A stretch of 64,000 bases of DNA, taken from Terriglobia bacterium (GTDB lineage Bacteria; Acidobacteriota; Terriglobia; UBA7540). Shown here piece after piece: positions 6,326 to 51,780 of this stretch. Location of the stretch: contig JBEKNU010000002.1 in assembly GCA_049522495.1 (NCBI GenBank), positions 18,365-82,364 on the forward strand, in the 5' to 3' direction. The notes beneath the pieces were generated by a model. That model saw only the letters and a list, made by a program, of their open reading frames with translations, did no database searches and was not told where the DNA came from. A program made the position numbers and the translations under genes. Within the stretch, counting starts at the first letter, position 1. The number at the start of each line of letters is the position of its first letter.

Positions 6326-8191
6326 TTGGTTTTTGGAGCGCACGGTATGATTTTCGAAGGCGGAGCGGCGGGACTGGAGGGACAGGGCCGGGATCAGGAG
6401 TATTTCCTGGCACACGCCTGTCTCGTGCTCGGTTCTGCTTGCGTCCTTACCGGCTATCTCTATCCTGCGGTTCTCGGGAGGCATGTTGCCCTTGGCCGGC
6501 TATTGACTTTCGCCTATTTTGCGTACGGACTGTTAAACCTGGCGGTGGTGCGGTATGGGCGGCACAGCGGTTTGGTATGGCGATTGAGTTCTCACGTCGC
6601 GGACGTGATTCTTGCCTCGTTGATCATCATGATGACCGGGGGAGCGCACAGCCCGTTCCTTCCCCTCTACATTTTTGTGCTCCTCTCGGCGGCAAGCCGG
6701 TGGGGTGTGGCGGGAATTCTTCCCACGGTCTGCGTCGGCATTATTGTTTTGTTGTTAGACGCGGGTCCCCCTTCTGCCTGGTCCGATGGCATGCCGCACT
6801 GGGTGGGGGGAAGCGGGTATTTCAATGCGATTATTGCCCTGCTGGTCTTGTCGGCATATCTCTTCGGCCTACTGATGGAAAGGGAGAAGAAGCAACATGC
6901 TGACGGTGTTATTATCACGCGGCTGGTCAGGAAGACGCTTCATGAATCAAGCTTACGAGTGAATCTCGGGAATATCCTGAAATTTGTGCGCGAACACTTT
7001 CATGCCGATCAGGTGGGGCTGGTCATCCAGGAGATTAAAGGTGAACAGACATTCTTCTGGGAAGCCAGCCGCCCGACACACCCCGGTGAAAACGAGGTCA
7101 AGTCCTGGAGCCTGACCGGGCCGGAACGAGAGGCATCCTTTGCCATGTTGCCGGAAGAAGTCTGCCGGCTGCTCGGACTGCGTCGTATGGGAGGGGATCC
7201 AAAGCTGCGGGCCGCGGCCATGGTGAAGCGGGAGGAAGATTTGCAGAATCCCCTGCGCTCGGCGCTGGCGCAGTTCAGTGCCTTGGATCACTACTATGAC
7301 GAGCTTTACGATATGCGCATTGTGAGCGAGAAGCACGCGCCCTTGGGAGGATTCGGCTCACTCCTTGCCACCTCATTTTCTTTAGAGAAGAGGTGGTTTG
7401 GGCGCCTTACCGTTTACGGCCCCCGGAATCGAATGGACTCCAAGGACAATTCCCGATTCCTGGCGACTTTAGTCCGGGAAGTGGGCCCCGTCATTTTCAA
7501 CAGATTCCTGGTGGGGCGCTTGCGGTCACGGGCTCAATCCCGGGAGCGGTTGCGCTTGGCGCAGGAACTTCACGACGGGGTTATTCAGTCGCTGATCGGG
7601 GTGGAAATGCAAATCGATCTCCTGCGGCGGGCGCAAGAGAGCGCGAATGGCTCGGGCGCCCCGAGCGGGGATTTGAAGCGCTTGCAAGAAGTTCTCCACA
7701 ATGAGATTGCAAATTTTAGAGAGGAAATGCACCGCGTAAGACCGCTGGAGGTTGAGCCTGCCCGCCTTTTGGACTGCCTGGAGTGTACGGTGGAGAGGTT
7801 TCGGCGCGACCTGGGAATTTCCGCCAGTTTTGTCGCCGAAGCGCAAGAAATATCCTTGCAACCTCGGGTGTGCGCCCAGTTGGTGCGGATCGTGCAAGAG
7901 GCGCTGGCGAATGTCCGCAAGCATAGCGGCGCCCACAAAGTGCAAGTGGCCTTTGGCCGGGAGAATGGACATTGGAGATTGTGCGTCGAGGATGATGGCC
8001 GCGGTTTTGGGTTCACAGGCCGTCGATCGTCCCTAGAGCTGGAAAGTGTGCCCGAGTGTCCCTTGGTCATCAAGGAAAGGGTTCGCTCCATCGGGGGCGA
8101 ACTCATGATAGAATCAGTTCCAGGTTCCGGAGCCAAATTAGAAATCTTTGTACCCTTGAGCACTAATGGAAGAACTACCAACTCCAATTGA
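6326..8191 (+). CDS. membrane-bound sensor histidine kinase (HisKA_3 / NarX-type) with multi-TM N-terminus
   Basis: ORF track. Start uncertain (TTG 6326 or ATG 6347). About 5-6 hydrophobic helices in the first 190 aa. H-box LAQELHDGVIQSLIG. HATPase_c blocks QEALANVRKHSGA and VEDDGRGFG. Confidence 0.85.
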   Translation: MVFGAHGMIFEGGAAGLEGQGRDQEYFLAHACLVLGSACVLTGYLYPAVLGRHVALGRLLTFAYFAYGLLNLAVVRYGRHSGLVWRLSSHVADVILASLIIMMTGGAHSPFLPLYIFVLLSAASRWGVAGILPTVCVGIIVLLLDAGPPSAWSDGMPHWVGGSGYFNAIIALLVLSAYLFGLLMEREKKQHADGVIITRLVRKTLHESSLRVNLGNILKFVREHFHADQVGLVIQEIKGEQTFFWEASRPTHPGENEVKSWSLTGPEREASFAMLPEEVCRLLGLRRMGGDPKLRAAAMVKREEDLQNPLRSALAQFSALDHYYDELYDMRIVSEKHAPLGGFGSLLATSFSLEKRWFGRLTVYGPRNRMDSKDNSRFLATLVREVGPVIFNRFLVGRLRSRAQSRERLRLAQELHDGVIQSLIGVEMQIDLLRRAQESANGSGAPSGDLKRLQEVLHNEIANFREEMHRVRPLEVEPARLLDCLECTVERFRRDLGISASFVAEAQEISLQPRVCAQLVRIVQEALANVRKHSGAHKVQVAFGRENGHWRLCVEDDGRGFGFTGRRSSLELESVPECPLVIKERVRSIGGELMIESVPGSGAKLEIFVPLSTNGRTTNSN

Positions 8192-8840
8192 GATTGTCAT
8201 TTCGGATGACCACCCGGTATTTCGGGAGGGTTTGCGGAAGCTGCTTGAAGCTGAGCGGGGGTTCCGCATTGTTGCGGAAGCTTCGGATGGCGAAGAGACG
8301 GTCAAGGTGGTCCGCCAGCACAAACCGAGGATTTTGCTGTTGGATCTTTCCATGCCCAAGGGCACCGGCCTTGAGACCTTGCGCGCGTTGAGCCAGTTGG
8401 GGATTCAAACGCGCACCATCCTCCTGACTGCGTCCATCGAGAAGGAGCAGGTGATTGAGGCGCTGCAGTTGGGAGCGCGCGGCATCGTCTTGAAGCATTC
8501 CACTCTCCAGGTTATCTTGAAGAGTATCCGCTGCGTAAATGATGATCAGTTCTGGATCGGCCAGGATAGCACTTCCGACCTGATCCAGGCCCTGCAACGG
8601 ATGATGCCTCAACACCGTGCTGCGGAGACTACGCGGAACTTCGGACTTACCGCTCGTGAATTGCAGGTCGTCGCGCTCATCGTGGCGGGCTACACCAATA
8701 AGGACCTAGCTCGGAAGCTGGGTATCAGTGAACACACTTCCAAGCACCACTTGACGAACATTTTTGACAAGCTGGGAGTCTCCAACCGCTTGGAACTGGT
8801 GCTCTTTGCCATCAACCACCAGTTGATTAAACAGGACTAG
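8166..8840 (+). CDS. response regulator, NarL/LuxR family (REC + LuxR HTH)
   Basis: ORF track. REC: IVISDDHPVFREGL...ILLLDLSMPKGTG. HTH: LTARELQVVALIVAGYTNKDLARKLGISEHTSKHHLTNIFDKLGV. Overlaps the kinase stop by 26 nt. Confidence 0.9.
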   Translation: MEELPTPIEIVISDDHPVFREGLRKLLEAERGFRIVAEASDGEETVKVVRQHKPRILLLDLSMPKGTGLETLRALSQLGIQTRTILLTASIEKEQVIEALQLGARGIVLKHSTLQVILKSIRCVNDDQFWIGQDSTSDLIQALQRMMPQHRAAETTRNFGLTARELQVVALIVAGYTNKDLARKLGISEHTSKHHLTNIFDKLGVSNRLELVLFAINHQLIKQD

Positions 8841-8880
8841 CACCGCCCCCCACGATAGCCCCCTTTTTTCGGCCCTCGGG

Positions 8881-9020
8881 GGCTCATAACCCGTTAAAAG
8901 AAGAGCATGTTAGCGTGCCATCCAGATATGGGCTATTAGTGCTATTTCAACTATACCATCGGGCTATTGTCAGGGTTTTCTAATCAGCTAAGCTAAGTGT
9001 GTCCGGTCAGTACGTTGTGG
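8881..9020 (+). promoter_or_regulatory. conserved EPS-locus promoter/leader element, copy A (putative -35 TTGTCA 8967-8972, -10 TAAGCT 8989-8994)
   Basis: About 140 nt strongly similar to 14434-14575 and 17637-17778. The shared core is TCCTATTTCAACTACACCATCGGGCTATTGTCAGAGTTTTCTAATCAGCTAAG..GGGTGTGCGTC. The spacing TTGTCA-16 nt-TAAGCT is sigma70-like. Confidence 0.5.
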
Positions 9021-9234
9021 TTGACCGGCCGGGAGCAAAGAATAAACCCGGTTGTCAAAGATCTGCCTTCGCGACAGGGGCCTCAGTCAGGGTTGATGCG
9101 AGCCATGTTGGATACGAGAAGCGATGGGTTCATTCATAGGCATGAGCGTGCCCAACGCTTGCTATTCTATTCAGCACGGATGGAGACTAGTTTGGGCGTC
9201 GCTTCTCGTACGAACTAGACTGGAGGCTTTCAGA

Positions 9235-9696
9235 ATGAGGATTTCTGTAAGTCAAAGGGCGGAGCTGCCTTTCGAGCAGCCAAAGCATCAGAGAAGGGAA
9301 GAGACGTCAGTTTCATCGGTCATTGGCATGCCAACAAAAACCTTACTGCAATCCGTAGGCCGGGCACGACGGTTCGCGCTGCACCTTCGGGTTTACTACC
9401 GGGAACTAAACGGCCGGGAGTGGTTTGAGGGGTGGACAGAAAACATCAGCCGGACGGGCATGCTGTTCACGTGTACCACATCGTTTAGTGTGGATACGCT
9501 TGTGGAGCTGAGGTTACAGCTTGCGGCGGGTGGTGGAAAGGAAGACCCTCCCGCTGAGGTCCTCTGCAAGGGCACAGTTATGCGGGTTGAACGGTTGGGC
9601 GGGTGGGATGCTCCTACCGCTTTGGCCGTGGCAATCCACCCCTATCGCATAACGCGCGGGAATGCACCTTCCAAGGGTTTGATGCCGTTTGCCTGA
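9235..9696 (+). CDS. stand-alone PilZ-domain protein (paralog 1)
   Basis: Frame of ORF 9124..9696. ATG 9235 is preferred (GGAGG 9222-9226, 8-nt spacer). (D/N)xSxxG motif present (TENISRTG). The N-terminal RRxxxR position reads RRFALH. Clear paralog of 15728..16084. Confidence 0.7.
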   Translation: MRISVSQRAELPFEQPKHQRREETSVSSVIGMPTKTLLQSVGRARRFALHLRVYYRELNGREWFEGWTENISRTGMLFTCTTSFSVDTLVELRLQLAAGGGKEDPPAEVLCKGTVMRVERLGGWDAPTALAVAIHPYRITRGNAPSKGLMPFA

Positions 9697-9740: not shown

Positions 9741-10358
9741 ATGCCGATGGAAGAGAGAGGGACGGAACGAATTTCCAGCCTTGTGGAAGCGCGCTGGCAT
9801 GCGCTTTACACGCGCCATCAGCACGAAAGGCTGGTTGCCCACGCTCTGACCGGCAAAGGATTTGATGTCTTCCTGCCCCAGTATCGGGCCATTCATCGCT
9901 GGAAAGACCGCCGGAAGGAACTCGACATGCCGCTTTTCCCCAATTACGTTTTCATTCAGGGTGGGCTTGACCGCATGTTGAACATCCTGACGACACCGGG
10001 CGTTCACTCGCTGGTGGCTTGGGGAGGGCGTCCGGCTGATATTCCCCAAGATGAAATCGATGCGGTGCGCCGGTTGGTTGAAAGCCCTTTGCGAATTCAG
10101 CAACACCCCTTCATCAAGTGCGGAGACCGGGTGCGGATTAAGTCAGGCCCCTTGGAAGGAATCGAAGGGATTCTCGTCCGCAGCAAGAGCGCTTACCGGT
10201 TGGTCCTTTCGGTGGAAATGCTTGCCCGATCTGCCGCCGTGGAGGTTGACGCCAGCATGGTGGAGCGCGTCCGCGGATCCGAACCTGTCCGAAAGGACGA
10301 TTTGAGAATTGACACGGGCGGTCCGGTTGTCGAGCTCGTTGGACCGAGCGGGGCTTAA
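9741..10358 (+). CDS. specialised NusG-family transcription antiterminator (RfaH/UpxY/LoaP-like paralog)
   Basis: Frame of ORF 9603..10358. ATG 9741 follows GGGGAGG. NGN-type block WHALYTRHQHERLVAHALTGKGFDVFLPQY...RRKELDMPLFPNYVFIQG. KOW-type block GDRVRIKSGPLEGIEGILV. About 205 aa. It sits in a polysaccharide locus, not next to secE/rplK. Confidence 0.8.
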   Translation: MPMEERGTERISSLVEARWHALYTRHQHERLVAHALTGKGFDVFLPQYRAIHRWKDRRKELDMPLFPNYVFIQGGLDRMLNILTTPGVHSLVAWGGRPADIPQDEIDAVRRLVESPLRIQQHPFIKCGDRVRIKSGPLEGIEGILVRSKSAYRLVLSVEMLARSAAVEVDASMVERVRGSEPVRKDDLRIDTGGPVVELVGPSGA

Positions 10359-14366: not shown

Positions 14367-14433
14367 AGAACCGGCACCCGTCACCGGTTAATCAACGAGG
14401 ACTAGCACCATCCTTCCCCCTTTCGGCGGTCTT

Positions 14434-14575
14434 GTGCCCGTAACCTCTTAAAAGGATTGGAATTCTGGTGCCACTCGGGCATGTGTTATCAGTCCTATTT
14501 CAACTACACCATCGGGCTATTGTCAGAGTTTTCTAATCAGCTAAGATGGGTGTGCGTCCGGTCAATCCGTTGTTT
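14434..14575 (+). promoter_or_regulatory. conserved EPS-locus promoter/leader element, copy B (putative -35 TTGTCA 14520-14525, -10 TAAGAT 14542-14547)
   Basis: See copy A. Similarity to the copy A region extends much further, roughly 14387-14905 versus 8822-9330. Confidence 0.5.
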
Positions 14576-14807
14576 CAGCGAGGGAATGATCGACTTGGAG
14601 CAAAGATTAAGCCAGGTCGGAGGAGATTCCCCCTCGCCCAACGGGGAACCTCAGTCAGGGTTAATTCAAACCATGTTGGATGCGAGAAGTGATGGGCATA
14701 TTCATAGCAATGAGCGTGCCCAACGCTTGCGATCCTAATTCAGCAGGGGTGGAGGCTGTTTCGGGCGTCCCTTCTCGTACTCGTACGAATTCGGGTCAAG
14801 GCTTACA

Positions 14808-14905
14808 GAGTAAGTGCTTCTGTAAGTCATAGGGCGGAGCTGTATTTTCAACGAATAATTCCTTCAGTCGAGGAAATGGACTTCAGCTTCATTGGTCACG
14901 AACGG
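14808..14905 (+). pseudogene. decayed 5' remnant of a PilZ gene (duplicate of the 9235.. start region)
   Basis: TTCTGTAAGTCATAGGGCGGAGCTG here versus TTCTGTAAGTCAAAGGGCGGAGCTG in PilZ1. The RBS and ATG are lost and an in-frame TAG has been created. Similarity continues (GACTTCAGCTTCATTGGTCA vs GACGTCAGTTTCATCGGTCA). Confidence 0.3.
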
Positions 14906-14974: not shown

Positions 14975-15451
14975 ATGGAAAGTATGTTCGCAAAGCCAGC
15001 CTCCGTGCTCTGGTGGGTCATAACCCTTGCATGGGCTATACAGATTTTCTTCCTTTCCACTCATGGGTTCAGTCCCCATTACACGGGACGTTGGTTGGCC
15101 CTGGCGCTGGACCTAATGCACCTCCACGTCTCGCTGCGCACCTTCGGGCTTCTGCATGCGGCTCTCCGGAAACTGGCGCACTTGACCGAGTATGGCATTT
15201 TCGCCCTTCTTCTGTACGGTATTCCTAATGGAAAGGGCTTGGAATCCTGGCGATCGAGCCGTGCGGCGATTTGCATTGCGCTCGCCGCCGCTTATTCCCT
15301 CTCGGATGAGTTTCATCAGCTATTTGTTCCTGGACGACATGCCTCGCTTCGCGATTGCGGATTGGACACGCTCGGCGCATCACTGGCCTTGCTCGTGCCC
15401 TATGCCCGGGAACGGATGTCTTTCCTGAGATTCCCCGGCAAGCTCTCCTAA
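14975..15451 (+). CDS. VanZ-like family membrane protein
   Basis: ORF track. Four hydrophobic helices. KLAHLTEYGIFALLL and SDEFHQLFVPGRHASLRDCGLDTLG match the VanZ-like signature. Confidence 0.75.
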   Translation: MESMFAKPASVLWWVITLAWAIQIFFLSTHGFSPHYTGRWLALALDLMHLHVSLRTFGLLHAALRKLAHLTEYGIFALLLYGIPNGKGLESWRSSRAAICIALAAAYSLSDEFHQLFVPGRHASLRDCGLDTLGASLALLVPYARERMSFLRFPGKLS

Positions 15452-15727: not shown

Positions 15728-16084
15728 ATGACTGACCCTCGCCTCGAACTGCTCCCCAAAGGCACCATACGGAAAGAACGATTTCCGCTCAGCATTCCTG
15801 TGCGCTACCGCCAGCCACACGAGTCGACCTGGTTCGAGGGCAGGACTGAGAACATCAGTTGCTCGGGAGTACTGTTGCTTGCGGAAGCCTCCTTAGAGCC
15901 AAAGATCACGATTGAACTGAGATTTGAGCTTCCCATTGCCGTCCTCGGGGAAGCACGCGGCGAGGTTGTCTGTAAGGGAACGGTGGTTCGCACCCAAGAG
16001 AATCCCATGGCAGGTATTCCGACAGCCCTGGCGGTGGCGATACGAAGTTATCGCATGACCCGGGGAGGGCAACAAGTTCATTAG
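15728..16084 (+). CDS. stand-alone PilZ-domain protein (paralog 2)
   Basis: ORF track. TENISCSG = (D/N)xSxxG. The RRxxxR position reads ERFPLS. Shares WFEG.TENIS, V.CKGTV.R and PTALAVAI..YR.TRG with PilZ1. Confidence 0.7.
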   Translation: MTDPRLELLPKGTIRKERFPLSIPVRYRQPHESTWFEGRTENISCSGVLLLAEASLEPKITIELRFELPIAVLGEARGEVVCKGTVVRTQENPMAGIPTALAVAIRSYRMTRGGQQVH

Positions 16085-16170
16085 TGCATTTTGGGGAAGG
16101 GATTGACACCTGAACCCGGAACTGGAGTTCAGGAGGAGTGATATGATGGTAGTTGTCTTGGAGAGGTAAT

Positions 16171-17493
16171 TTGAAGAAACTCTTTCCCCTCGCCATGTTC
16201 GCGATCTTGTTGCCCTTAGGTCTTATGGCGCAAACAGCATCGCCCACGGCAGGGGCCGCATCCCAACCAGCAGTTTTTGGCGTTGGATTGCAGACACCGT
16301 TACGGTTCGCGGGAGAGTCCATTCCCACGAACCAAGTTTCGCTGAGCTTGGGCGCCTCGACCTTCTACGACGACAACGTCCTCCAAAGGAACTCAGGCCG
16401 GATCAGAGATGAAGGGGCCAATTTTAGTTCTGATCTAAAGTTTCTAAGGCAGACCGAGAACGTGACATTCAGTTTTGATTACCAGCCTGAGTTTGCCTTA
16501 TACAACAATACTAACCAACTGGACCGGCTCAACCATCTTGGTACTCTGAACCTGACTTACCGAATGAGTTCACGCTTTTATATCGGAATGTATGACACTT
16601 TCAGTTATCTAAACGGCGCCTTTCAATCCCAGCAGATTCTGTCGGGGCTTAGTTCGCCCACCGCCCTGAATCAATCGATCATCCCGTACACGGTCAGAAC
16701 GCTGGCGAATACGAGTGGGTTGAATCTGAGCTTTGTGAAGAGCCATAGGACGTCTCTTACCCTTTCGGGTAATTACGACGAGCGCCGATTCGGAAGCGCC
16801 CAGATCGTGGGTCAGCCGTTGTATAACACCCGGGAAATGAGTGGCGGCTTTCAGTATCAATACCGTATTACCGAGCATACAAGTTTCGGCCTTGCTTTGC
16901 TCCATCAAGATTCCACGTACGATGGGGGCACGGGCTTCGGCGGCAACCGGCGTTTTCAAAACGAAAGCGCGTTCTTCTCCATCCAGTCACGAGTGTCCCC
17001 CACCGTCACCCTGGCGTTCTTCGGCGGGCCGCAATACGCTAGTATCTTTGGCCAGTCTGCGAGCGGGGGTGCGGTGAGACAATTGCAAGGCGCCGGTGGA
17101 GGAAGTATTACCAAAGAGGTTAAGAAGACGGCCTTGGATCTGTCTGTCCAAAGGGCGGCATCCGACAGCGGGGGCCTTTACACCATGGTGGAAAGCACCT
17201 CGGCCACACTGGGAGTGCGCCGGCGCCTGGTTGGACGCTGGGAAGCTGGACTGCACGGCGGCGCTACGAGAGTGGAAACCTCGCTCTTGCACCTTGGCAG
17301 TGGAAAGACGGATGCCTTATTGGGGGGATTTGATCTCACGCGCCCCTTCTCGAATGGCGCGGCCTTCCACGTATCCTACCAAACCTTTCACCAATTGTCC
17401 TCTGGGAGCGTACCCGTTGCGGCGAATTTCGACCGCGACCTCGTAACGGTGGGCATTGATTTCCGACTTAAAGCAATCCCGCTTGGTCATTAA
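16171..17493 (+). CDS. putative integral outer-membrane beta-barrel protein (candidate porin partner of the short OPX)
   Basis: Frame of ORF 16153..17493. TTG 16171 follows GGAGAGG, giving the signal peptide MKKLFPLAMFAILLPLGLMAQ. The sequence is rich in alternating hydrophobic/polar stretches with Y/F/G/N/S/T (FSFDYQPEFALY, LNLTYRMSSRFYIGMYDTFSY, AFHVSYQTF). Confidence 0.55.
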   Translation: MKKLFPLAMFAILLPLGLMAQTASPTAGAASQPAVFGVGLQTPLRFAGESIPTNQVSLSLGASTFYDDNVLQRNSGRIRDEGANFSSDLKFLRQTENVTFSFDYQPEFALYNNTNQLDRLNHLGTLNLTYRMSSRFYIGMYDTFSYLNGAFQSQQILSGLSSPTALNQSIIPYTVRTLANTSGLNLSFVKSHRTSLTLSGNYDERRFGSAQIVGQPLYNTREMSGGFQYQYRITEHTSFGLALLHQDSTYDGGTGFGGNRRFQNESAFFSIQSRVSPTVTLAFFGGPQYASIFGQSASGGAVRQLQGAGGGSITKEVKKTALDLSVQRAASDSGGLYTMVESTSATLGVRRRLVGRWEAGLHGGATRVETSLLHLGSGKTDALLGGFDLTRPFSNGAAFHVSYQTFHQLSSGSVPVAANFDRDLVTVGIDFRLKAIPLGH

Positions 17494-17636
17494 GCGCGCA
17501 GCCCAACTCAAAACTGGCTCCCTGGCGAGAAACGGTCCCAGAAGTGTTTGAGCATTCTCTTCATAGATTTTTAATAATCATGTCGTCGAGGGTTAGCAGC
17601 AACCCCTTACTATACTCCCCGTTATCGGCATTTTTG

Positions 17637-17778
17637 GGCTCATAACCCCCTAAAAGGATAGCATCTTGGTGCCAGTCAGATATGCGCCATTAGTCCTATT
17701 TCAACTCCACCATGGGGCCATTGTAAGAGTTTTCTAATCAGCTAAGCTGGGTGTGCGTCAGGGCAGTCCGTGGTTTGA
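17637..17778 (+). promoter_or_regulatory. conserved EPS-locus promoter/leader element, copy C (putative -35 TTGTAA 17721-17726, -10 TAAGCT 17743-17748)
   Basis: See copy A. It lies ~85 nt upstream of the priming transferase ATG (17834; RBS AGGAGAG 17821-17827). Confidence 0.5.
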
Positions 17779-17833
17779 TTGAACGGGTAACCGGTCTACT
17801 TATTAACATATTGGCGATAGAGGAGAGATTAAG

Positions 17834-19006
17834 ATGATCAGCGAAATCTTTGCTCCAAAAAGGTCGCGGAAGATGACCCTGGGAGCTGTGTCTCCATTGA
17901 ATCCACTTGACAGGGAAGAGGGCCAGAGCGAGGATACCGGGTTTTCGCTGGTGTCGGAAGAGCTTTTCCGGAAGGTGTTGTCGATTGAGCGGAAAAGAAG
18001 TGAGCGCTCTCGGCAACGGTTTGTGCTAATGCTTGTGCATGTCGGCAAGGTTATTGAGACCGACCGCAGCGGGATGGTTCTTGAAGGAATATCGGAGGCG
18101 CTTTCCAGCTCCGCGCGCGAGACGGATTTGCATGGCTGGTATCAGAACGGTTCGGTGGTGGGTGTTATCTGCACAGAAATCGGCAAGGGGGACCTGACCT
18201 CCATCCTCAGCGCTCTGCATTCGAGGGTGGGCGCAGCCTTACGGAACAGGCTGGGTCTGGAGCAGATGAATGCCATCCATATCTCCTTCCATGTGTTTCC
18301 AGACGATTTGGACCTCAACAAGGGCGGCCGTTCCACGGACATCAGTCTCTATCCCGATTTACTGCCAAAAAACATCGCATCCACAACCTCCCGGGTAGTC
18401 AAAAGAGCCATAGATCTGACCGGGAGCCTCGCGGCGCTTATCCTGCTCTCCCCGCTCTATGCTGTCATTGCTGTCGCAATTAAGCTGACGTCGAAAGGCC
18501 CGATCCTGTTCAAGCAGGATCGCGTGGGAGAGTATGGCATTCGCTTTTCCTGCCTGAAGTTCCGATCAATGTATTACAAGAACGATGCGAAGATTCACCA
18601 GGAATACGTCCGAGGGCTGATTTCCGGGAAGCACGATGGCAAGGGGAATGTTTACAAGATAAAGGACGACCCCCGGGTTACACCTGTCGGGAAATTTCTG
18701 CGGAAGACCAGTCTGGACGAACTACCTCAGTTCTTCAACGTGCTCAAGGGCGAGATGTCTCTGGTGGGGCCCCGTCCCCCTATCCCTTACGAGGTTGAGG
18801 CCTATGAAGTATGGCACCGGCGGCGCTTCCTCGAGGCGAAGCCGGGGATCACGGGACTGTGGCAGGTGGAGGGACGGAGCAGGACCAAGTTTGACGAAAT
18901 GGTCCGTCTGGACCTCCGCTACGCAAAAACCTGGTCGCCTTGGTTGGACATCAAAATCCTCCTGCGAACGCCCGCTGCGGTGTTTAGGGGAGACGGCGCG
19001 TATTGA
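17834..19006 (+). CDS. priming phosphoglycosyl transferase (Bac_transf / WbaP-EpsB type) with N-terminal degenerate GGDEF-like domain
   Basis: ORF track. C-terminal half: KRAIDLTGSLAALILLSPLYAVIAVAIKLTSKGPILFKQDRVG...DDPRVTPVGKFLRKTSLDELPQFFNVLKGEMSLVGPRP...PGITGLWQV. N-terminal ~170 aa aligns by eye to a GGDEF fold, with RETD (18116-18127) five residues before QNGSV (18143-18157) at the GG(D/E)EF position. Confidence 0.85.
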   Translation: MISEIFAPKRSRKMTLGAVSPLNPLDREEGQSEDTGFSLVSEELFRKVLSIERKRSERSRQRFVLMLVHVGKVIETDRSGMVLEGISEALSSSARETDLHGWYQNGSVVGVICTEIGKGDLTSILSALHSRVGAALRNRLGLEQMNAIHISFHVFPDDLDLNKGGRSTDISLYPDLLPKNIASTTSRVVKRAIDLTGSLAALILLSPLYAVIAVAIKLTSKGPILFKQDRVGEYGIRFSCLKFRSMYYKNDAKIHQEYVRGLISGKHDGKGNVYKIKDDPRVTPVGKFLRKTSLDELPQFFNVLKGEMSLVGPRPPIPYEVEAYEVWHRRRFLEAKPGITGLWQVEGRSRTKFDEMVRLDLRYAKTWSPWLDIKILLRTPAAVFRGDGAY

Positions 19007-45219: not shown

Positions 45220-48200
45220 GTGGCGAGTATAACCACCCGTGGTGTTCTTCCGACAAGCCAGGTCTGCATAATGCTCACAAGAGTACCGAGTTCCGATAGT
45301 CGTGCCGTCCGCTCTTGCCCCCCGTCATCCGACAAGGAAGTTGCGACCATCCGGGAACTGATTGACCATATGGCCCGGACGCAGCCGGAGGCTTCCTTTC
45401 TCATCAGCCCTGAAACCGGACGAGTATTGACATTCCAGGGTTTACAAGAGCAGTCGAGGTTTCTCTCCACCCAACTTCGGGAGGCAGGATTAGAGCGTGG
45501 CGACAAGGTTGCCTTCTTGCTGGAGAACGGGTTGTTTACCGCACAGTTGTTCTTGGGAGCAATGTACGGAGGGTTCGTATCGGTGCCGTTGAATGTTCGC
45601 GCCGGCGTGTCCCAACTGTCCTACATGCTGGACCACTGTGACGCCAAAGTGGTTTTCGTCGCCGACGAGTACGCGACGATGATGGCCGAGGTGATGGCCC
45701 AGGTGCGGCGGACCGTACAGGCGATTCCCGCCGACATTGATGGCTTCCCTGCGGCGGGCGAAACACCTCCTTCGGCCACATCGCTGCCGGTCCCTGGGCC
45801 AGAGGACCAAGCGCTCCTGATGTACACCTCCGGCAGCACGGGTCATCCGAAAGCGGCAGTGCATTCCCATCGCACGGTGCTCTCCTTCGCCGCCAATAGC
45901 GTCCGTTCACACCAACTCGCCGGCGCGGACCGCTCCCTTTTGATGCTGCCGCTGTACCACATCAACGCGTCGTGCGTCACCCTGGTTCCCACGCTCATGA
46001 CTGGTGGATGCGTCGTCGTGCCCCATCGCTTCAGTGTCAGCCAGTTCTGGGACTGGCTGGACGAACACCGCTGTACGTGGTCGGCCGTGGTGCCGACGAT
46101 CATCGCTCAGCTTCTCGAGTGGGAAGATCCCCGTGCGGATAAGCGTCAAGCCGCCTTCCAGCGGATCCGGTTCGTACGTTCTTCTTCGGCGCCGCTGGCG
46201 CCGTCCCTGCACCGCGAGTTCCTTGATAAATTCCCTTTGTTGCTGATCCAGGCCATGGGCTCGAGCGAAGCGGGCAATGTTTTTTCCAATCCACTACCCC
46301 CAGGCAAGAACAAGATTGGATCGCCCGGCTTACCCTGGGGCTTCGAGGTCAAGATCGTTGATCGGGAGGGGGTTGAACTGGCAGCAGGAGAGCCCGGCGA
46401 AATCGTGCTTCGCGGTCCCGCCGTCATGCAGGGTTACTACAAGGAGCCGGAGGCGACGGCGGCGGTCCTTGACCCCGACGGCTGGCTGCACACCGGTGAC
46501 CTCGCGTATCGGGACGAAGACGGGTACTTCTTCGTGGTCGGCCGATCCAAGGAACTGATTATCAAAGGGGGAGTTAACATTGCTCCTCGGCAGATCGACG
46601 ACGTTCTGGAATCCCACCCGGCGGTGCGGGAAGCAGCCGCCGTAGGAGTTCCCGACCGTTACCTGGGTGAGGATCTCGTTGCTTTCGTGGTATTGCGCGC
46701 AGGAGTTGCCTGCGAGGAGAGGGAACTGCTCGCCTTTTGCGAAAGCCGATTGGGCCACTTTAAGACCCCAACACGGATCCACTTTGCCGACGACTTGCCC
46801 AAAGGCCCTTCCGGCAAAGTACAGCGGTTGCACTTGCGCGACGAGGCGGCACAGCTTGCCACGGGCAGCTCCGGTTCCTCTCGAGGCGAACTGGCGATAG
46901 CACTGGGCACTGGCCAGGTTGCACACCCTGGATTGCCGGCTGCCGGGTCGTCCATCGAGCAAATCATCGCCGAAACCTGGACGGAAGTCCTTTCGAAAGC
47001 GCCCGTGGACGCTGAGAGCAATTTCTTCGCGTTAGGGGGACACTCGCTGCTCGCTATGCAATGCGTGTCGCGTCTTCGCGAGAGAATCCCCGTTGCCCTT
47101 TCGCTGTCGGATTTCTTCGAGAACGCTACGGTGGCGCAGCAGGCCGCGCTTGTCCGGCGGCGATTGCCCCGGGACGAAGGTCAAGCCCTTGCGGGTGGAT
47201 CGGCCGCGGCTCGCGAAGAAGCCTGGCAGCTAAAGGTCGCGTCGTCCGTCAGCCCGCTGGCCATCCCTCCGCGGGATCCGGCGCTCCCTTGCCCTCTCAG
47301 CACCGCGCAGCGTCGGTTGTGGTTTATCGAACAGTTGAATCCCGGGTTGCCGCTTTACAACGAAGCTGAGGGCGTGCGGTTGCTCGGCGAACTCAATACC
47401 GAGGCGATGGAACGAGCGCTGAACGTTATCGTCGCACGCCACGAGGTGCTGCGCACTACCATCCAGGTAACGGACAACGAACCCGTGATGGTAGTCCACG
47501 AGAGCTGGCCGCTTCAGCTTAAGAAGATCGACCTGAGCGCATTGACCCCCGCGGAGCGGCAGGCAGAAGTCGAGCGCTTGCTCATTGACGAGCCGCGGCG
47601 CCTGTATCATCTCGAAGCCGAACCGGGAATCCGTGCGACGTTGCTCCGTTTGGCCCCCCGGGAGCATATCTTCATTCTGATGATGCACCATATCTTTAGC
47701 GACCGGTCATCGCTAGGGATTTTGTTTCGGGAGATGGCAACACTGTACCGCGCCTTTTGCCGCGGCGAGTCGATTGCCTTGCCTCCTCTGCTGATCCAGT
47801 ACGGAGATTATGCGGTTTGGCAGCAACAGAGGATTACGGACGCGGCGTCAGCCGAAGACCTGTCCTTCTGGACGGAGAACCTGCGTGGGGCGCCTCAACT
47901 CCTGGAATTGCCCGCGGATCGGCCCCGCCCGCTCACGCTTTCCTACCGCGGCGTCAAACGGCGCTTCCGGCTTAACCCCGCCTTGACCAAAGCTCTACGC
48001 GATGCCAGCCAACGGGAAAAGGCAAGCTTGTTCACCCTGTTTACCGCGGCGCTCGACACCCTGCTCTATCGTTACACGGGACGGGAAGACATCCTGTTGG
48101 GAATTCCGATCGCCGACCGGGAACGGCCGGAACTGCAATCGGTGATCGGTTTTTTGGTCCACACCTGCGTCTTGCGAACCGGGCTTTCGGGAGACATGAC

Positions 48201-51200
48201 GTTTCGGGAGTTGCTCGCCCTCGTTCAGAAGGAAATGTTGGAGCTTTACCGTCATCGCGCCGTGCCATTTGACGAGGTTGTGCGAAAACTCCGGCCGGAG
48301 CGCAACCCAAGTTACTCCCCGCTGTTCCAAGTGATGATCAATTGGCGCGATCGCGGTCTGCAACTGTCGTTTATCGGGTTGGAAGGACTTGTGGTGGAGC
48401 CGCTTCTGGCCCAGAGCGAAACGGCGAAGCTCGATTTGCAACTGTTCATAACCGACGGCGGGGACGAATTCTGGTTGGAGATGGAATACAGCACTGACCT
48501 GTTCGACGAGGCGCGCATCTCGCGAATGATCGGGCACTATCAAACCCTGCTGGAATCGGTGGCCTCTGATCCCGGCCGGCGACTGGCGGAATTGCCTTTG
48601 TTGACAGCGGAGGAGCGGCGCCAACTCCTGGTGGAATGGAATAACACCAGGGTCGATTATCCCGCTGATGCGTGCGTTCACGAGCTATTTGAAAGGCAGG
48701 CGAAAAGGACACCTGAGGCGGTGGCGGTGGAGTTCAATGGCGAACGATTGACATATTCCGAGTTGAACAGGCGAAGCACGGAGTTTGCTCAACACCTGCA
48801 AGCGCGGGGAGTTGGCCCGGACGTCCTTGTCGCTGTCTATGTCGACCGCTCGTTGGAATTGGTGATCGCCTTACTGGGAATTCTCAAGGCCGGAGGCGCT
48901 TACCTGCCCGTTGACCTGGTTTTTCCGCAGGAGCGGGTGGCATTTATGCTGGGTGATGCACAACCCCGAGTTTTGGTTACGGTTACGAAACTTCTGGCGG
49001 AACTTCCGCGTAACCAATCGGAGGTAGTCTGCGTCAATGACTTTGCGGCCCTGAGTGAGGCGCCGATGGCTCGGCCCCCGGAGTCCCGCCATTTGGCGTA
49101 CGTGATTTACACTTCCGGTTCCACAGGAAAGCCCAAGGGGGTTGAAATTTGCCACCGGGCGGTGGTGAATTTCCTGAACTCCATGCGACAAGTGCCGGGG
49201 ATGGAGGCGCAGGATACGCTGTTGTCTGTCACTTCCCCGTCATTCGACATTTTTGGCCTGGAACTGTGGCTGCCACTCACCAGCGGAGCTAAGGTGGTGA
49301 TCGTGTCGCAGGACGTGGCAATGGATGGAAGCCAACTTGCCAAGGTCATGGCCGCGCGCGGTGTGACGGTGATGCAGGCCACGCCGTCAACCTGGCGGGT
49401 GTTGTTGGAGGCAGGATGGGAGGGCGACCTGAGTTTGAAGATTCTCTGCGGTGGTGAAGCGTGGCCGGAAGAACTCGCCGCGCAACTGCTGCCCAAGGGC
49501 CGCGCGCTATGGAATATGTACGGGCCCACGGAGACCACCCTCGGGTCGGCCGTATACCCGGTGGAGAAGGGGACGCCGATTTTGATTGGGGATCCGATTG
49601 CGAACACGCAATTTTACGTGGTCGATAGTGACCTGCAGCCAGTGCCGGTGGGAGTGCCCGGCGAGCTTTTGATCGGAGGTGATGGTCTGGCGCGAGGCTA
49701 CTTGCGGCGTCCCGAGTTGACGGCCGAAAAGTTCATTCCCGATCCCTTCAGCGCGAGCGCGGGTTCGCGACTGTATCGGACCGGTGACTTGGTGCGCTAC
49801 CTGCCGGACGGCAATCTTGAGTTCCTCGGCCGGCTGGATCAACAGGTGAAAATCCATGGCTTCCGTATCGAGTTGGGTGAAATCGAAGCCGCGCTGCGCC
49901 AACATCCGGCCGTGCAGCAAACCGTCGTGATCGCGCGAGAGGATACGCCGGGAGACAAACGCCTTGTCGCCTACGTGGTGGTGAATCCCGAGTACGAAAT
50001 CGGCTCAGACGAAGCCGAATCGCATTCGGAACACCTTGACGGCTGGCAGACGATGTGGGACGAGACCTACCAGCAGTCGGCGGAGATTCCCGATCACACG
50101 TTCAACATCGCAGGGTGGAATAGCAGTTATACCGGCGAGGCCATACCCGCCGAGCAAATGCGCACATGGGTTGACACCACCGTCGAACGGATCCTTGCCC
50201 TGCGGCCGCAGCGAGTGTGGGAAATCGGTTGCGGCACCGGTTTGCTGCTCCACCGCCTGGCTCCCCACTGTCTCCATTATTACGCGACGGATTTTTCCGC
50301 CACCGCGGTGAATACCCTGCAACGGCAGATTGCCGGATCGGCTGTGACGAATAAGGTGGTGCTGAAGCAAGCCCAGGCGCATGACTTTACCGGCATCGAA
50401 GCAGGGAGCTTCGATGTTGTCATCCTGAACTCCGTCGCACAGTACTTTCCTGACGTCAATTATCTGGTGCGGGTGTTGGAAGGCGCGGTGCGGGCCGTGA
50501 AGCCCGGGGGCGCAATTTTCCTGGGCGACATTCGCAGCGAGCCGCTCCTGAACGCGTTTCATGCGGCGGTCCAACTGGAGCAGGCGCCTGCCTCGCTGCC
50601 AGGCGCTGATCTGCGGCAAAGGATTCAAAGGGCTCTGAGCCAGGAAAGCGAATTGGCCATCAGCCCCGGCTTTTTCATCGCCTTGTGGAAGCACCTGCCG
50701 GCCATTACCCAGGTGGAGATTCAACTCAAGCGGGGCCGTCATCACAACGAGTTGAGCCTCTTTCGTTACGATGTGGTCCTGCGCGTGGGAGCGACGGTTA
50801 AATCCACGGAAAACCAGACTCGCTTCGACTGGCAACAACGCGGGTTTTCGGTGCCCGATCTGCGCCGGTATCTGGAGGAGGAGCGGCCCGCCGCGCTCAC
50901 CCTGACGGGAGTGCCCAACGCCCGGCTGCAGCGTGAATTCAAGCTGCTTGAAATCCTCGCCGGCGTGGAATGTCCAGCGACGGTAGGGGAGCTCCGCGGA
51001 GCCCTGAGAGCGGACAGCGCGCCCAACGCGATCGACCCGGAGGATCTCTGGACTTTAGGTGAGTCGCTGGGTTACACCGTTCAAGTCCGCTGGTCGGATG
51101 GCGGAGCAGCGGCTTCGTGCGATGCGGTATTCCTGCGACGCGAGAACGGCGCGGGGGATGGGGTGGACTCGGTGTTCCATTTCCCGGGCGAGCCGAGTGC

Positions 51201-51780
51201 CTCCCGGCCTTGGAGCGCGTACGCGAACAATCCGCTCCAGCGCGCCTTGATCAGTAACTTGACGCCGCGATTATCCTCGTACTTGCAAGAGAGCTTGCCG
51301 GACTACATGGTCCCCTCGGCCTTCGTGACGCTCGGAACCCTGCCGTTGACGCCCAACGGTAAAGTGGACCGACGCGCCCTGCCTCCCCCGGCCGCAGAGA
51401 GGCTTGCCGGGGCGATTTCCGCTGACCTTGTACCGCAGAATGAAACGGAACGGAAGATCGCAGCGATTTGGCAGGACGTCCTGGGGATTACCAGCGTCGG
51501 CAGAGAGGACAACTTTTTTGATCTGGGTGGTGATTCTTTCCGCTTAATAAGGGTTCGCAACCATTTGCAGCGGACCTTTGGCAAAGACATTCCCCTGGTC
51601 GATATGTTTCGGTGCACGACGGTTCGAGCCCTCGCGCAATACTTTGCAGGCCGACCGGCCGAGTTGACTGCGCCGGACCACACCCAGGAAGAGCTTGAGG
51701 CGCGAAGAGGCGCAAGCCGGCGTCATCGGCAATTGCGACGGCTTCTCGTGGATGAGTTGCGAGAGCATTTGAATGAGTAA
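45220..51780 (+). CDS. non-ribosomal peptide synthetase: CoA-ligase-like loading domain - CP - C - A(with embedded methyltransferase) - CP
   Basis: ORF track (start uncertain: GTG 45220 or ATG 45270). Loading domain: LMYTSGSTGHPKAAVHSH, HTGDLAYRDEDGYFFVVGRSKELIIKGG, PKGPSGKVQR. Carrier: FFALGGHSLLAMQ. C domain: MHHIFSDRSS (HHxxxD). A domain: YVIYTSGSTGKPKGV, NMYGPTETT, YRTGDLVRY, GRLDQQVKIHGFRIELGEIE. MT insert: VWEIGCGTGLLLHRL, FDVVILNSVAQYF. A10: PLTPNGKVDRRAL. Carrier: FFDLGGDSFRLIR. Confidence 0.9.
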   Translation: MASITTRGVLPTSQVCIMLTRVPSSDSRAVRSCPPSSDKEVATIRELIDHMARTQPEASFLISPETGRVLTFQGLQEQSRFLSTQLREAGLERGDKVAFLLENGLFTAQLFLGAMYGGFVSVPLNVRAGVSQLSYMLDHCDAKVVFVADEYATMMAEVMAQVRRTVQAIPADIDGFPAAGETPPSATSLPVPGPEDQALLMYTSGSTGHPKAAVHSHRTVLSFAANSVRSHQLAGADRSLLMLPLYHINASCVTLVPTLMTGGCVVVPHRFSVSQFWDWLDEHRCTWSAVVPTIIAQLLEWEDPRADKRQAAFQRIRFVRSSSAPLAPSLHREFLDKFPLLLIQAMGSSEAGNVFSNPLPPGKNKIGSPGLPWGFEVKIVDREGVELAAGEPGEIVLRGPAVMQGYYKEPEATAAVLDPDGWLHTGDLAYRDEDGYFFVVGRSKELIIKGGVNIAPRQIDDVLESHPAVREAAAVGVPDRYLGEDLVAFVVLRAGVACEERELLAFCESRLGHFKTPTRIHFADDLPKGPSGKVQRLHLRDEAAQLATGSSGSSRGELAIALGTGQVAHPGLPAAGSSIEQIIAETWTEVLSKAPVDAESNFFALGGHSLLAMQCVSRLRERIPVALSLSDFFENATVAQQAALVRRRLPRDEGQALAGGSAAAREEAWQLKVASSVSPLAIPPRDPALPCPLSTAQRRLWFIEQLNPGLPLYNEAEGVRLLGELNTEAMERALNVIVARHEVLRTTIQVTDNEPVMVVHESWPLQLKKIDLSALTPAERQAEVERLLIDEPRRLYHLEAEPGIRATLLRLAPREHIFILMMHHIFSDRSSLGILFREMATLYRAFCRGESIALPPLLIQYGDYAVWQQQRITDAASAEDLSFWTENLRGAPQLLELPADRPRPLTLSYRGVKRRFRLNPALTKALRDASQREKASLFTLFTAALDTLLYRYTGREDILLGIPIADRERPELQSVIGFLVHTCVLRTGLSGDMTFRELLALVQKEMLELYRHRAVPFDEVVRKLRPERNPSYSPLFQVMINWRDRGLQLSFIGLEGLVVEPLLAQSETAKLDLQLFITDGGDEFWLEMEYSTDLFDEARISRMIGHYQTLLESVASDPGRRLAELPLLTAEERRQLLVEWNNTRVDYPADACVHELFERQAKRTPEAVAVEFNGERLTYSELNRRSTEFAQHLQARGVGPDVLVAVYVDRSLELVIALLGILKAGGAYLPVDLVFPQERVAFMLGDAQPRVLVTVTKLLAELPRNQSEVVCVNDFAALSEAPMARPPESRHLAYVIYTSGSTGKPKGVEICHRAVVNFLNSMRQVPGMEAQDTLLSVTSPSFDIFGLELWLPLTSGAKVVIVSQDVAMDGSQLAKVMAARGVTVMQATPSTWRVLLEAGWEGDLSLKILCGGEAWPEELAAQLLPKGRALWNMYGPTETTLGSAVYPVEKGTPILIGDPIANTQFYVVDSDLQPVPVGVPGELLIGGDGLARGYLRRPELTAEKFIPDPFSASAGSRLYRTGDLVRYLPDGNLEFLGRLDQQVKIHGFRIELGEIEAALRQHPAVQQTVVIAREDTPGDKRLVAYVVVNPEYEIGSDEAESHSEHLDGWQTMWDETYQQSAEIPDHTFNIAGWNSSYTGEAIPAEQMRTWVDTTVERILALRPQRVWEIGCGTGLLLHRLAPHCLHYYATDFSATAVNTLQRQIAGSAVTNKVVLKQAQAHDFTGIEAGSFDVVILNSVAQYFPDVNYLVRVLEGAVRAVKPGGAIFLGDIRSEPLLNAFHAAVQLEQAPASLPGADLRQRIQRALSQESELAISPGFFIALWKHLPAITQVEIQLKRGRHHNELSLFRYDVVLRVGATVKSTENQTRFDWQQRGFSVPDLRRYLEEERPAALTLTGVPNARLQREFKLLEILAGVECPATVGELRGALRADSAPNAIDPEDLWTLGESLGYTVQVRWSDGGAAASCDAVFLRRENGAGDGVDSVFHFPGEPSASRPWSAYANNPLQRALISNLTPRLSSYLQESLPDYMVPSAFVTLGTLPLTPNGKVDRRALPPPAAERLAGAISADLVPQNETERKIAAIWQDVLGITSVGREDNFFDLGGDSFRLIRVRNHLQRTFGKDIPLVDMFRCTTVRALAQYFAGRPAELTAPDHTQEELEARRGASRRHRQLRRLLVDELREHLNE

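Follow-up and report, generated by a model that had tools for sequence, protein, structure and literature searches.

The DNA considered here is a stretch of 64,000 nt (64 kb; the window, below) from an uncultured Terriglobia (Acidobacteriota) bacterium, and it carries an exopolysaccharide (EPS) cluster of the XrtA/PEP-CTERM type. From about 6.3 kb on all genes lie on the plus strand, and three related repeats, A, B and C, each occupy an intergenic gap preceding EPS genes (Table 1). These repeats probably constitute one regulatory cassette of the cluster, with an activator-dependent promoter in all three copies and, in A and B, a leader signal for polymerase pausing and for recruitment of UpxY, a specialised transcription antiterminator paralogous to NusG. 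Copy A is preceded by the genes of a histidine kinase and a NarL/LuxR-family response regulator, and is followed by genes for a small PilZ-domain protein (PilZa) and for the UpxY-family protein. Next come a Wza-type exporter, an unassigned protein, an XrtA-type chain-length determinant and a tyrosine autokinase (ending at 14366), then copy B. A VanZ protein, a second PilZ protein (PilZb) and an outer-membrane-like protein are encoded between B and C, and copy C heads the gene of a priming glycosylphosphotransferase, behind which lie sugar-modifying enzymes, glycosyltransferases and a flippase. The initial annotation had placed the regulator next to copy A correctly but had overlooked the UpxY-family gene, which was found by a profile match. 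Its product scores 119.1 bits against the UpxY model NF033644, passing the cutoff of 100, and fails the models for RfaH (79 bits, cutoff 144.5), LoaP (61 bits, cutoff 125) and NusG (below cutoff).

Table 1. Coordinates of genes and regulatory features in the window (positions relative to transcription refer to predicted starts).
Feature	Position	Strand	Evidence or remark
Histidine kinase	6326–8191	+	
NarL/LuxR-family response regulator	8166–8840	+	Pfam Response_reg and GerE; closest solved structure is NarL
Whole duplicated unit of copy A, with 3' end of the regulator gene, promoter module and leader	8817–9327	+	Alignment with B, 74.5%
IR1 (inverted repeat 1), imperfect 7-6-7 palindrome AGAGCAT-GTTAGC-GTGCCAT, candidate regulator dimer site	8902–8921		Centre near −90
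GTGCTAT half-site at −63, right half of IR2	8939–8945		Left half degenerate in the window
ACCATCGGGCTATTG box (degenerate third site) overlapping −35 hexamer TTGTCA (8967–8972)	8955–8972	+	Centre about −43
−10 hexamer TAAGCT, copy A	8989–8994	+	Predicted start near 9001
5'-proximal stem-loop of predicted transcript, CCGGTCA...TGACCGG	9003–9028	+	Fold z = −1.2, not exceptional
Relic of first-PilZ N-terminus, 37 codons, MLDTRSDGFIHRHERAQRL...; holds hairpin of initial annotation (9145–9159)	9105–9218	+	tblastn
HP-ops, copy A: hairpin GGCTTTCAGA/TCTGTAAGTC, then AAAGGGCGGAGCT; GCG-G-AGC at 9259–9265	9225–9266	+	Regular expression; covariance model, 57.4 bits
PilZ-domain protein (PilZa), first intact gene of unit A	9328–9696	+	Pfam PilZ; start as in relatives' 122-aa genes
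UpxY-family NusG paralog	9741–10358	+	NCBIfam NF033644; PDB matches NusG and RfaH
Copy B, whole duplicated unit; PilZ relic with hairpin at 14713–14727	14382–14905	+	Repeat search, alignment
−35 hexamer, copy B	14520–14525	+	TTGTCA-16-TAAGAT, 9/12 consensus matches
−10 hexamer, copy B	14542–14547	+	Predicted start 14554
HP-ops, copy B, ahead of VanZ, PilZb and outer-membrane-like protein	14800–14841	+	Covariance model, 70.9 bits
VanZ	14975–15451	+	
PilZb	15728–16084	+	
Outer-membrane-like protein	16153–17493	+	
Copy C, promoter module only; about 79-nt leader	17617–17795	+	Alignment
Box, copy C	17709–17723	+	
−35 hexamer, copy C	17721–17726	+	
−10 hexamer, copy C	17743–17748	+	Predicted start 17755
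Priming glycosylphosphotransferase	17834–19006	+	
NRPS-PKS, A-C-A-methyltransferase-PCP	45220–51780	+	
NRPS-PKS, KS-AT-KR-ACP	51773–56395	+	
NRPS-PKS, KS-AT-ACP-TE	56392–60306	+	

A repeat search returned the three copies as a direct family on the plus strand (8861/8898–9022, 14415/14451–14575 and 17617/17652–17776), and both this search and alignment confirmed the intergenic trio heading EPS genes that had been described initially, with a core of about 165 nt rather than about 140 nt. Pairwise identities of the core are 74% (A–B), 80% (A–C) and 78% (B–C), and a MAFFT alignment of the copies shows a long invariant block, ...CTATTTCAACT..ACCAT.GGGC.ATTGT.AG.GTTTTCTAATCAGCTAAG. With up to three mismatches allowed, the 64 kb contain exactly three matches to the 18-mer GTTTTCTAATCAGCTAAG and exactly three to the 23-mer CTATTTCAACTNNACCATNGGGC, against shuffled expectations of 0.02 and 0.00, respectively, and nhmmer found no copy in the window beyond A, B and C. 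The similarity of A and B past the core, also reported before, is real but more extensive than was claimed and covers the whole of the two units listed in Table 1; copy C corresponds to only the first 180 nt or so. The A/B unit begins with 28 nt that comprise the last 24 nt of the regulator gene and the 4 nt after its stop codon (8817–8844 and 14382–14409), and because B thus opens with a copy of the 3' end of that gene, it is a segmental duplicate of the A region. A distal part of the core (TTCGGC...CTCATAACCCnTTAAAAGGA; 8866–8900, 14419–14455 and 17621–17660), upstream of the half-sites described below, is kept within the window's clade only.

Fifteen related loci, given below by their L numbers together with others from later scans, were fetched via UpxY homologs of 66–90% identity. 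All are syntenic with the window, and in close relatives the slots of the repeat are unchanged, L001 having three copies and L004 and L007 two each. Public collections were then scanned with the strict pattern CCATNGGGCYATTG-N19-TAARCT, derived from the ACCATCGGGCTATTG box, the sole part of the core that nhmmer recognises in distant loci. The genome collection gave 18 stretches, 12 of them in metagenome-assembled genomes (MAGs) of Terriglobia/Acidobacteriota and six being chance matches in other phyla; the 12 are distributed one per MAG, save two from a single MAG. The metagenome collection gave 88 stretches, most of them in the slot between a regulator gene and a PilZ gene. Upstream sequence was sufficient for 45 distinct genuine hits, and in 34 of them the regulator gene ends less than 400 nt upstream, in most hits 90–125 nt away and across wide divergence, and a PilZ gene is usually found downstream. 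On these grounds copy A represents the ancestral slot; B arose from it by duplication of a segment of about 510 nt, and C is a copy of the promoter module only. Outside EPS clusters a few genuine copies were found, ahead of genes for large secreted Ig-like/Kelch-repeat proteins and for a beta-helix protein, and also ahead of a small open reading frame (ORF) behind which a PP2C phosphatase and a Ser/Thr kinase are encoded. Such a distribution suits a small regulon and not a dispersed repeat, an alternative raised at the outset that does not agree with three one-strand, intergenic copies in 64 kb and one stretch per Terriglobia MAG under the strict scan pattern. Tandem copies of box and −10 hexamer, about 200 nt apart, are present in the regulator–PilZ gap of several loci (L012:8368–8654, L014:8562–8840, L052, L077 and L082). 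In L008 (1001–7011) mobile and defence genes stand upstream of the promoter in place of the kinase and regulator genes, namely an integrase and AbiEi/AbiEii, along with transposase fragments and a group II intron RNA (Rfam RF02003, 6865–6989); promoter and leader motif are retained.

The module common to A, B and C is supported as a sigma70-type promoter of the form TTGnnn-16 nt-TAA(A/G)CT with predicted starts. The hexamers first noted recur in every copy, as TTGTCA or TTGTAA and TAAGCT or TAAGAT separated by 16 nt (8967–8994, 14520–14547 and 17721–17748). In distant loci, where UpxY is 66–77% identical, all that survives is rGTGCYAT-N9/10-ACCATCGGGCYATTG(T/C)nn-N16-TAAACT, the spacer bases being free, and the spacing TTGnnn-16/17-TAA(A/G)CT was seen in such loci before any pattern had been imposed. 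Relatives with a regulator of 65–70% identity retain the hexamers and the upstream sites as the spacer drifts, and no spacer position reaches 1 bit among 67 promoters. Hexamers at a fixed distance around a free spacer are the signature expected of a promoter. L008 is exceptional in having a spacer of 17 nt and TATGGT as its −10 hexamer.

Upstream of the hexamers lies an array of heptamer half-sites, which was analysed in 67 distinct promoters anchored on the box, the start being assumed 7 nt after the −10 hexamer; the hexamers had belonged to the later search pattern, but the half-site positions had not. GTGCYA occurs 93 times and TRGCAC 48 times in the upstream 100 nt of these promoters, compared with about 3.3 each in shuffles, and 5 and 2 times in the downstream 100 nt. 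The former peaks at −63 (48/67 promoters) and at −87/−86 (40/67), and the latter at −99 to −97 (29/67) and at −75 (12/67). They define two palindromic sites centred near −90 and −66, to which is added a third, centred near −43, with a strong right half GGGCYAT that abuts the −35 hexamer. Perfect 20-bp palindromes are found in many relatives (e.g., ATAGCACC-N4-GGTGCTAT), and in B- and C-type copies IR1 is 2 nt shorter (7-4-7) and GTCCTAT stands at −63. Promoters retain the right half at −63 much more often than the left one, so that sequence and not pairing is under constraint, which favours protein-binding DNA sites over RNA hairpins.

Palindromes of about 20 bp and heptamer half-sites are the usual targets of NarL/GerE-family dimers. 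A dimeric helix-turn-helix (HTH) regulator of the GerE type is thus a natural candidate for binding the half-sites and the adjacent response regulator the obvious one, judging from synteny and the type of site. Such a dimeric activator would bind the array and turn the units on together, and most likely it would be the NarL/LuxR-type protein encoded, with its histidine kinase, just upstream. The arrangement resembles class II activator-dependent promoters of NarL/FixJ/LuxR regulators, among them NarL heptamer arrays and 20-bp palindromes of the lux-box type, in its inverted and single heptamer half-sites, in a proximal site that overlaps the −35 hexamer near −43 and in the adjacent regulator gene. 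It differs in the half-site itself (GTGCYAT, as against TACYYMT for NarL) and in having three candidate sites about 23–24 bp apart. A minus-strand sigma-54 promoter at GGTGCCA (TGGCAC-N5-...) was rejected by eye, its GC element not being at a fixed distance across the three copies, and a terminator for the regulator gene (AGCCCCC...GGGGGCT) was also rejected, as it is present in copy A only and has no T-run.

About 300 nt of leader, from the predicted start up to the first intact gene, are common to A and B. Within the window's clade the predicted transcript opens with a stem-loop formed by its first 50 nt or so (9003–9028, 14558–14592 and 17757–17790; also L001, L004, L059, L074 and L109), which is longer in relatives and has a conserved loop, GTTTGATTGAA. 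The loop is common to A-, B- and C-type copies and to the non-EPS promoter copies, and its folding in single sequences is unremarkable. Further downstream, A and B contain a pseudogene fragment. In distant loci an intact PilZ gene begins directly after the promoter, and tblastn with these first-PilZ proteins (MLDARG...TRAQRF) matches a frame in A, B and L001, which reads MLDTRSDGFIHRHERAQRL in A and MLDARSDGHIHSNERAQRL in B and then meets a stop; the relic in the B copy of L001 is frameshifted. The hairpin AGCGT-GCCCA-ACGCT, which the initial annotation had singled out as a conserved element of the A and B leaders, is present in both as described (9145–9159 and 14713–14727). As a conserved hairpin it does not hold up, since it encodes ERAQRL within the PilZ relic and L001 A, L004 and L092 have broken pairs with no compensating change. 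Its terminator-like score is weak and its folding modest (z = −1.2). Two small ORFs of 37 and 20 codons in A and B were tried as leader peptides and rejected as relics of the PilZ N-terminus, the frame being broken in L001 B. The original view of the repeats as a conserved promoter joined to a leader element is thus right in outline and is supported by comparison, as hexamers, spacing and half-sites are conserved and the regulator gene is a conserved upstream neighbour, but the RNA-level element is another hairpin.

That other hairpin belongs to a motif of about 42 nt, named HP-ops for a hairpin plus an ops-like sequence, which consists of GGCTTACAG-N11-CTGTAAGTC followed by AnAGGGCGGAGCT, i.e., by A-n-A-GGGCGGAGCT after the 3' arm. 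The stem has 9–10 bp, and AGGGCGGAGCT falls within the 13 nt after it. In copy A the motif lies about 225 nt past the predicted start and 62 nt before pilZa, and in copy B about 245 nt past the predicted start. A tolerant pattern gave 80 matches, representing 52 distinct sequences in the fetched loci, with one motif per EPS locus and two where a B unit exists. The position in the transcribed leader of the export operon, as judged from predicted starts, is shared by all 52. A covariance model built from the alignment (R1), run with filters off, found exactly two copies in the window, and matched neither near copy C nor at the non-EPS promoter copies.

HP-ops is conserved to a degree that its neighbours are not. 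C-GGAGCT is invariant in 52/52 sequences, and conservation is 90% or higher in the remainder of GGGCGGAGCT and in most of the 3' arm; the PilZ proteins encoded nearby are about 35–55% identical and the regulator and UpxY 65–75%. Stem positions are paired in 95.4% of cases, compared with 18–44% in controls with the partner slid along. Covariation is seen at the two loop-proximal pairs (AU 19, GC 15 and GU 9 at one; GC 46 and UA 2 at the other), and one-sided changes in the stem yield G.U pairs. RNAalifold recovered the hairpin together with a mini-hairpin, GGC-GGA-GCU; a search for a larger conserved RNA structure upstream of the motif, using 54 sequences, gave these two only. Folding z-scores of single sequences are unremarkable for the 5' stem-loops and for HP-ops, except for HP-ops B (z = −2.4). 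Rfam 15, including its c-di-GMP (cyclic di-GMP) riboswitches, had no family match in the window or in the leaders of nine related loci, and at permissive E-values gave noise only (E > 1) for 8700–9500.

The layout of HP-ops recalls the signals at which UpxY proteins act in Bacteroides, where they are recruited at opsX sites of about 40 nt in the leaders of capsule operons (Saba et al. 2024, PMC11685472). These sites combine a NusA-responsive pause hairpin in the nascent RNA, ending 9–12 nt (class 1) or 14 nt (class 2) before the pause, with a non-template-strand hairpin that has 5'-GCG...AGC stems like those of Escherichia coli ops; there are also sequence-specific contacts to the upstream duplex, i.e., the DNA encoding the 3' arm of the pause hairpin, and the Y start codon lies at +41/42 (PMC11685472). 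HP-ops, likewise, is a leader signal of some 40 nt in a polysaccharide operon with its own gene for a UpxY-family NusG paralog, and it shares with class-1 opsX of B. fragilis the same parts in the same order: a hairpin and, about a dozen nucleotides later, a G-rich stretch with GCG...AGC. GCG-G-AGC begins 5 nt and ends 12 nt after the hairpin; each of the 52 sequences has it, invariant but for the first G, which is present in at least 90%. If the pause were at the invariant T of GGAGCT, the hairpin would end at −14, with a G ten positions before the pause and the T at it. The 3' arm is conserved beyond what pairing needs. UpxY is encoded within 2.5 kb downstream of the motif in 14 of 18 primary loci, and in L106 its ATG is at +38 from the invariant T, close to the Bacteroides distance. 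The UpxY gene of the window is therefore an obvious candidate partner, and we infer from this analogy that HP-ops is its loading site.

Differences from the Bacteroides system are equally clear. The phylum and the sequence are others, and a near-invariant site is kept here across many species, whereas opsX sites are locus-specific and discriminate between paralogs. In the window cluster neither a UpxZ gene nor an invertible promoter is present, and a second unit carries a duplicate of the site. Usually upxY is separated from promoter or site by one or two PilZ genes, and some loci have no adjacent upxY.

In E. coli, RfaH is recruited at ops (GGCGGTAGCGTG), which lies within JUMPStart leaders. 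Similarities to HP-ops include its place in the leaders of long envelope-polysaccharide operons, a GGCGG.AGC core, a G at −10 and a pyrimidine at the proposed pause that fit the consensus pause, and a factor that can act in trans on several operons. HP-ops has, unlike ops, an upstream RNA hairpin, ops being a hairpin-less class II pause, and its candidate partner protein scores as UpxY and not as RfaH. With a different sequence, a hairpin, and a protein that fails the RfaH model, HP-ops is not a JUMPStart/RfaH ops site. LoaP, which is proposed to bind an RNA hairpin through its KOW domain, offers a further parallel in Bacillus polyketide clusters, where a NusG paralog and a leader hairpin precede a very long operon. 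In the window a set of hybrid nonribosomal peptide synthetase–polyketide synthase (NRPS-PKS) genes lies downstream, but the UpxY-family protein fails the LoaP model and no copy of the motif precedes those genes. A literature search found nothing on acidobacterial NusG paralogs or on the HP-ops motif. The element would be a phylogenetically distant addition to activator-dependent promoters and ops/opsX-type elongation signals, and is neither an Rfam riboswitch nor a mobile repeat.

The proposed sequence of events would be as follows. After activation of the promoter, RNA polymerase would pause at the leader motif, stabilised by the nascent-RNA hairpin, the non-template strand exposing the GCG-G-AGC mini-hairpin and the 3' arm of the hairpin serving as upstream duplex DNA. 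UpxY, encoded 475 nt downstream, could then load on the paused polymerase and allow processive transcription through the long, co-directional EPS array. Unit B would provide a second loading site, with UpxY acting in trans, and polymerases that start at B could carry UpxY across C into the 25-kb biosynthetic array.

Several observations weigh against this scheme. The −10 hexamers of A and C match TATAAT at only 3/6 positions, a consensus promoter scan of the copies flags B alone with no enrichment over shuffles, and a palindrome spacing that changes from 7-6-7 in A-type copies to 7-4-7 in those of the B and C types fits a rigid dimer poorly. In the leader, two pairs supply most of the covariation, and such counts are inflated by relatedness among the sequences; nearest-neighbour DNA folding of the mini-hairpin GCGGAGC gives about −1 kcal/mol or nothing (as it does for E. 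coli ops), and the base at +1, next to the proposed pause, varies. Compared with ops the motif is also one base shorter (GGCGG-AGC), and the flipped-out T read by RfaH is missing. The leader motif is absent from copy C and from the second copy of L004, so that it cannot coordinate all units; of the single RNA-level mechanism first envisaged for the three units there remains a leader signal (hairpin 9225–9253 and GGGCGGAGCT) in A and B, but not in C. Finally, five loci (L061, L065, L067, L112 and L113) keep the motif perfectly and have no upxY between the PilZ gene and Wza. In these either UpxY acts from elsewhere or the motif works without it. L113 has the motif at 1396–1460, PilZ at 1674–2009 and Wza from 2207, with no upxY in the 13 kb downstream, and L073, a close relative of L112, has upxY where L112 does not.

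These last loci lend some weight to the idea that the leader motif is a cis-acting RNA working without UpxY, for example a protein-binding or ligand-responsive RNA tied to the flanking genes for PilZ, a c-di-GMP receptor, or a pause that times downstream translation. A PilZ gene follows the motif in almost all loci, with PilZ on both sides in many, and in addition to the five loci without an adjacent upxY the hairpin shows the G.U variation typical of RNA. Such an RNA nevertheless seems unlikely. No Rfam family, c-di-GMP riboswitches included, matches the motif and no extended consensus structure surrounds it; L106 and L008-type loci have upxY after the motif with no intact PilZ gene between. 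The invariant part consists only of the single-stranded G-rich sequence and the 3' arm, and so recognition as DNA, or by RNA polymerase, fits better than an aptamer.

A double-stranded DNA operator would be another way to read the leader motif, CTTACAG-N11-CTGTAAG being then the site of a dimeric repressor or activator that acts as a roadblock or as a second regulator site. The motif is indeed an inverted repeat (7-11-7) whose arms keep their distance while the centre varies, and symmetric changes such as CTTACAT/ATGTAAG would suit a palindromic operator as well as a hairpin. What makes this explanation improbable is the kind of variation seen. A conserved G.T position (GGCTTAC vs GTAAGTC) alternates with A.T, C-G changes to T-G in five sequences and A-T to G-T in five, and these changes keep pairing within the single strand but break the symmetry of the palindrome. 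The 3' arm and the adjacent, non-palindromic AGGGCGGAGCT are, moreover, better conserved than the 5' arm.

For the promoter module, it might be argued that an alternative sigma factor or some other regulator reads it and that the two-component genes are neighbours through synteny only. The block ACCATCGGGCYATTG beside the −35 hexamer is unusually rigid, L008-type loci retain the promoter with mobile elements upstream instead of the kinase and regulator genes, and the module is found at non-EPS genes too. The short distance of the regulator gene in most hits over wide divergence, the palindromic heptamer sites that are typical of NarL/GerE dimers as a family, and the ordinary sigma70 geometry of the −35 and −10 hexamers speak against it, and we give it little credence. 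That the copies are neutral leftovers of a recent segmental duplication with no regulatory role is highly improbable, in spite of the useless regulator-gene piece and PilZ relic carried by B, as conservation of the hexamers, half-sites and leader motif, unlike that of the flanking non-coding sequence, reaches far outside the window's clade, and the copies occupy the same slots in relatives.

Returning to an activator promoter coupled to UpxY loading, the flanking small PilZ proteins raise a further and rather doubtful possibility, that, when loaded with c-di-GMP, they might modulate UpxY or the paused polymerase, or might substitute for UpxY where it is absent. UpxY is modulated by UpxZ in Bacteroides. 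If the suggestion were true, the level of a second messenger, c-di-GMP, would set the processivity of EPS transcription, and we know of no described link between c-di-GMP and processive antitermination.

To our knowledge, detailed accounts of where NusG paralogs are recruited exist only for enterobacterial RfaH and, from 2024 on, for Bacteroides UpxY, and target sequences have not been described for most other phyla. The present analysis adds a near-invariant candidate site of about 42 nt for an acidobacterial UpxY, with 52 natural variants aligned and a covariance model built, and this candidate site adjoins a clean candidate operator array for a two-component regulator. Together they provide a testable model for the switching on of EPS in peat and soil Acidobacteria, which are abundant and hard to culture. 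As a second, phylogenetically distant case they also allow one to ask which parts of ops-type sites are universal, among the pause hairpin, the non-template hairpin with GCG...AGC and the contacts to the upstream duplex. It is a clean, testable regulatory model and not a new principle.

The hybrid NRPS-PKS genes lie just downstream of the EPS genes and on the same strand (45220–60306, +). In other organisms such clusters are under the control of NusG paralogs, LoaP and TaA among them; no copy of the promoter module or of the leader motif stands ahead of the NRPS-PKS genes in the 64-kb window. Within the EPS cluster, the VanZ gene separates the B leader from the second PilZ gene in the window, in L001 and L007 the PilZ gene comes directly after the leader, and in L008 VanZ is placed ahead of the B region, so that the place of VanZ within the cluster shifts.

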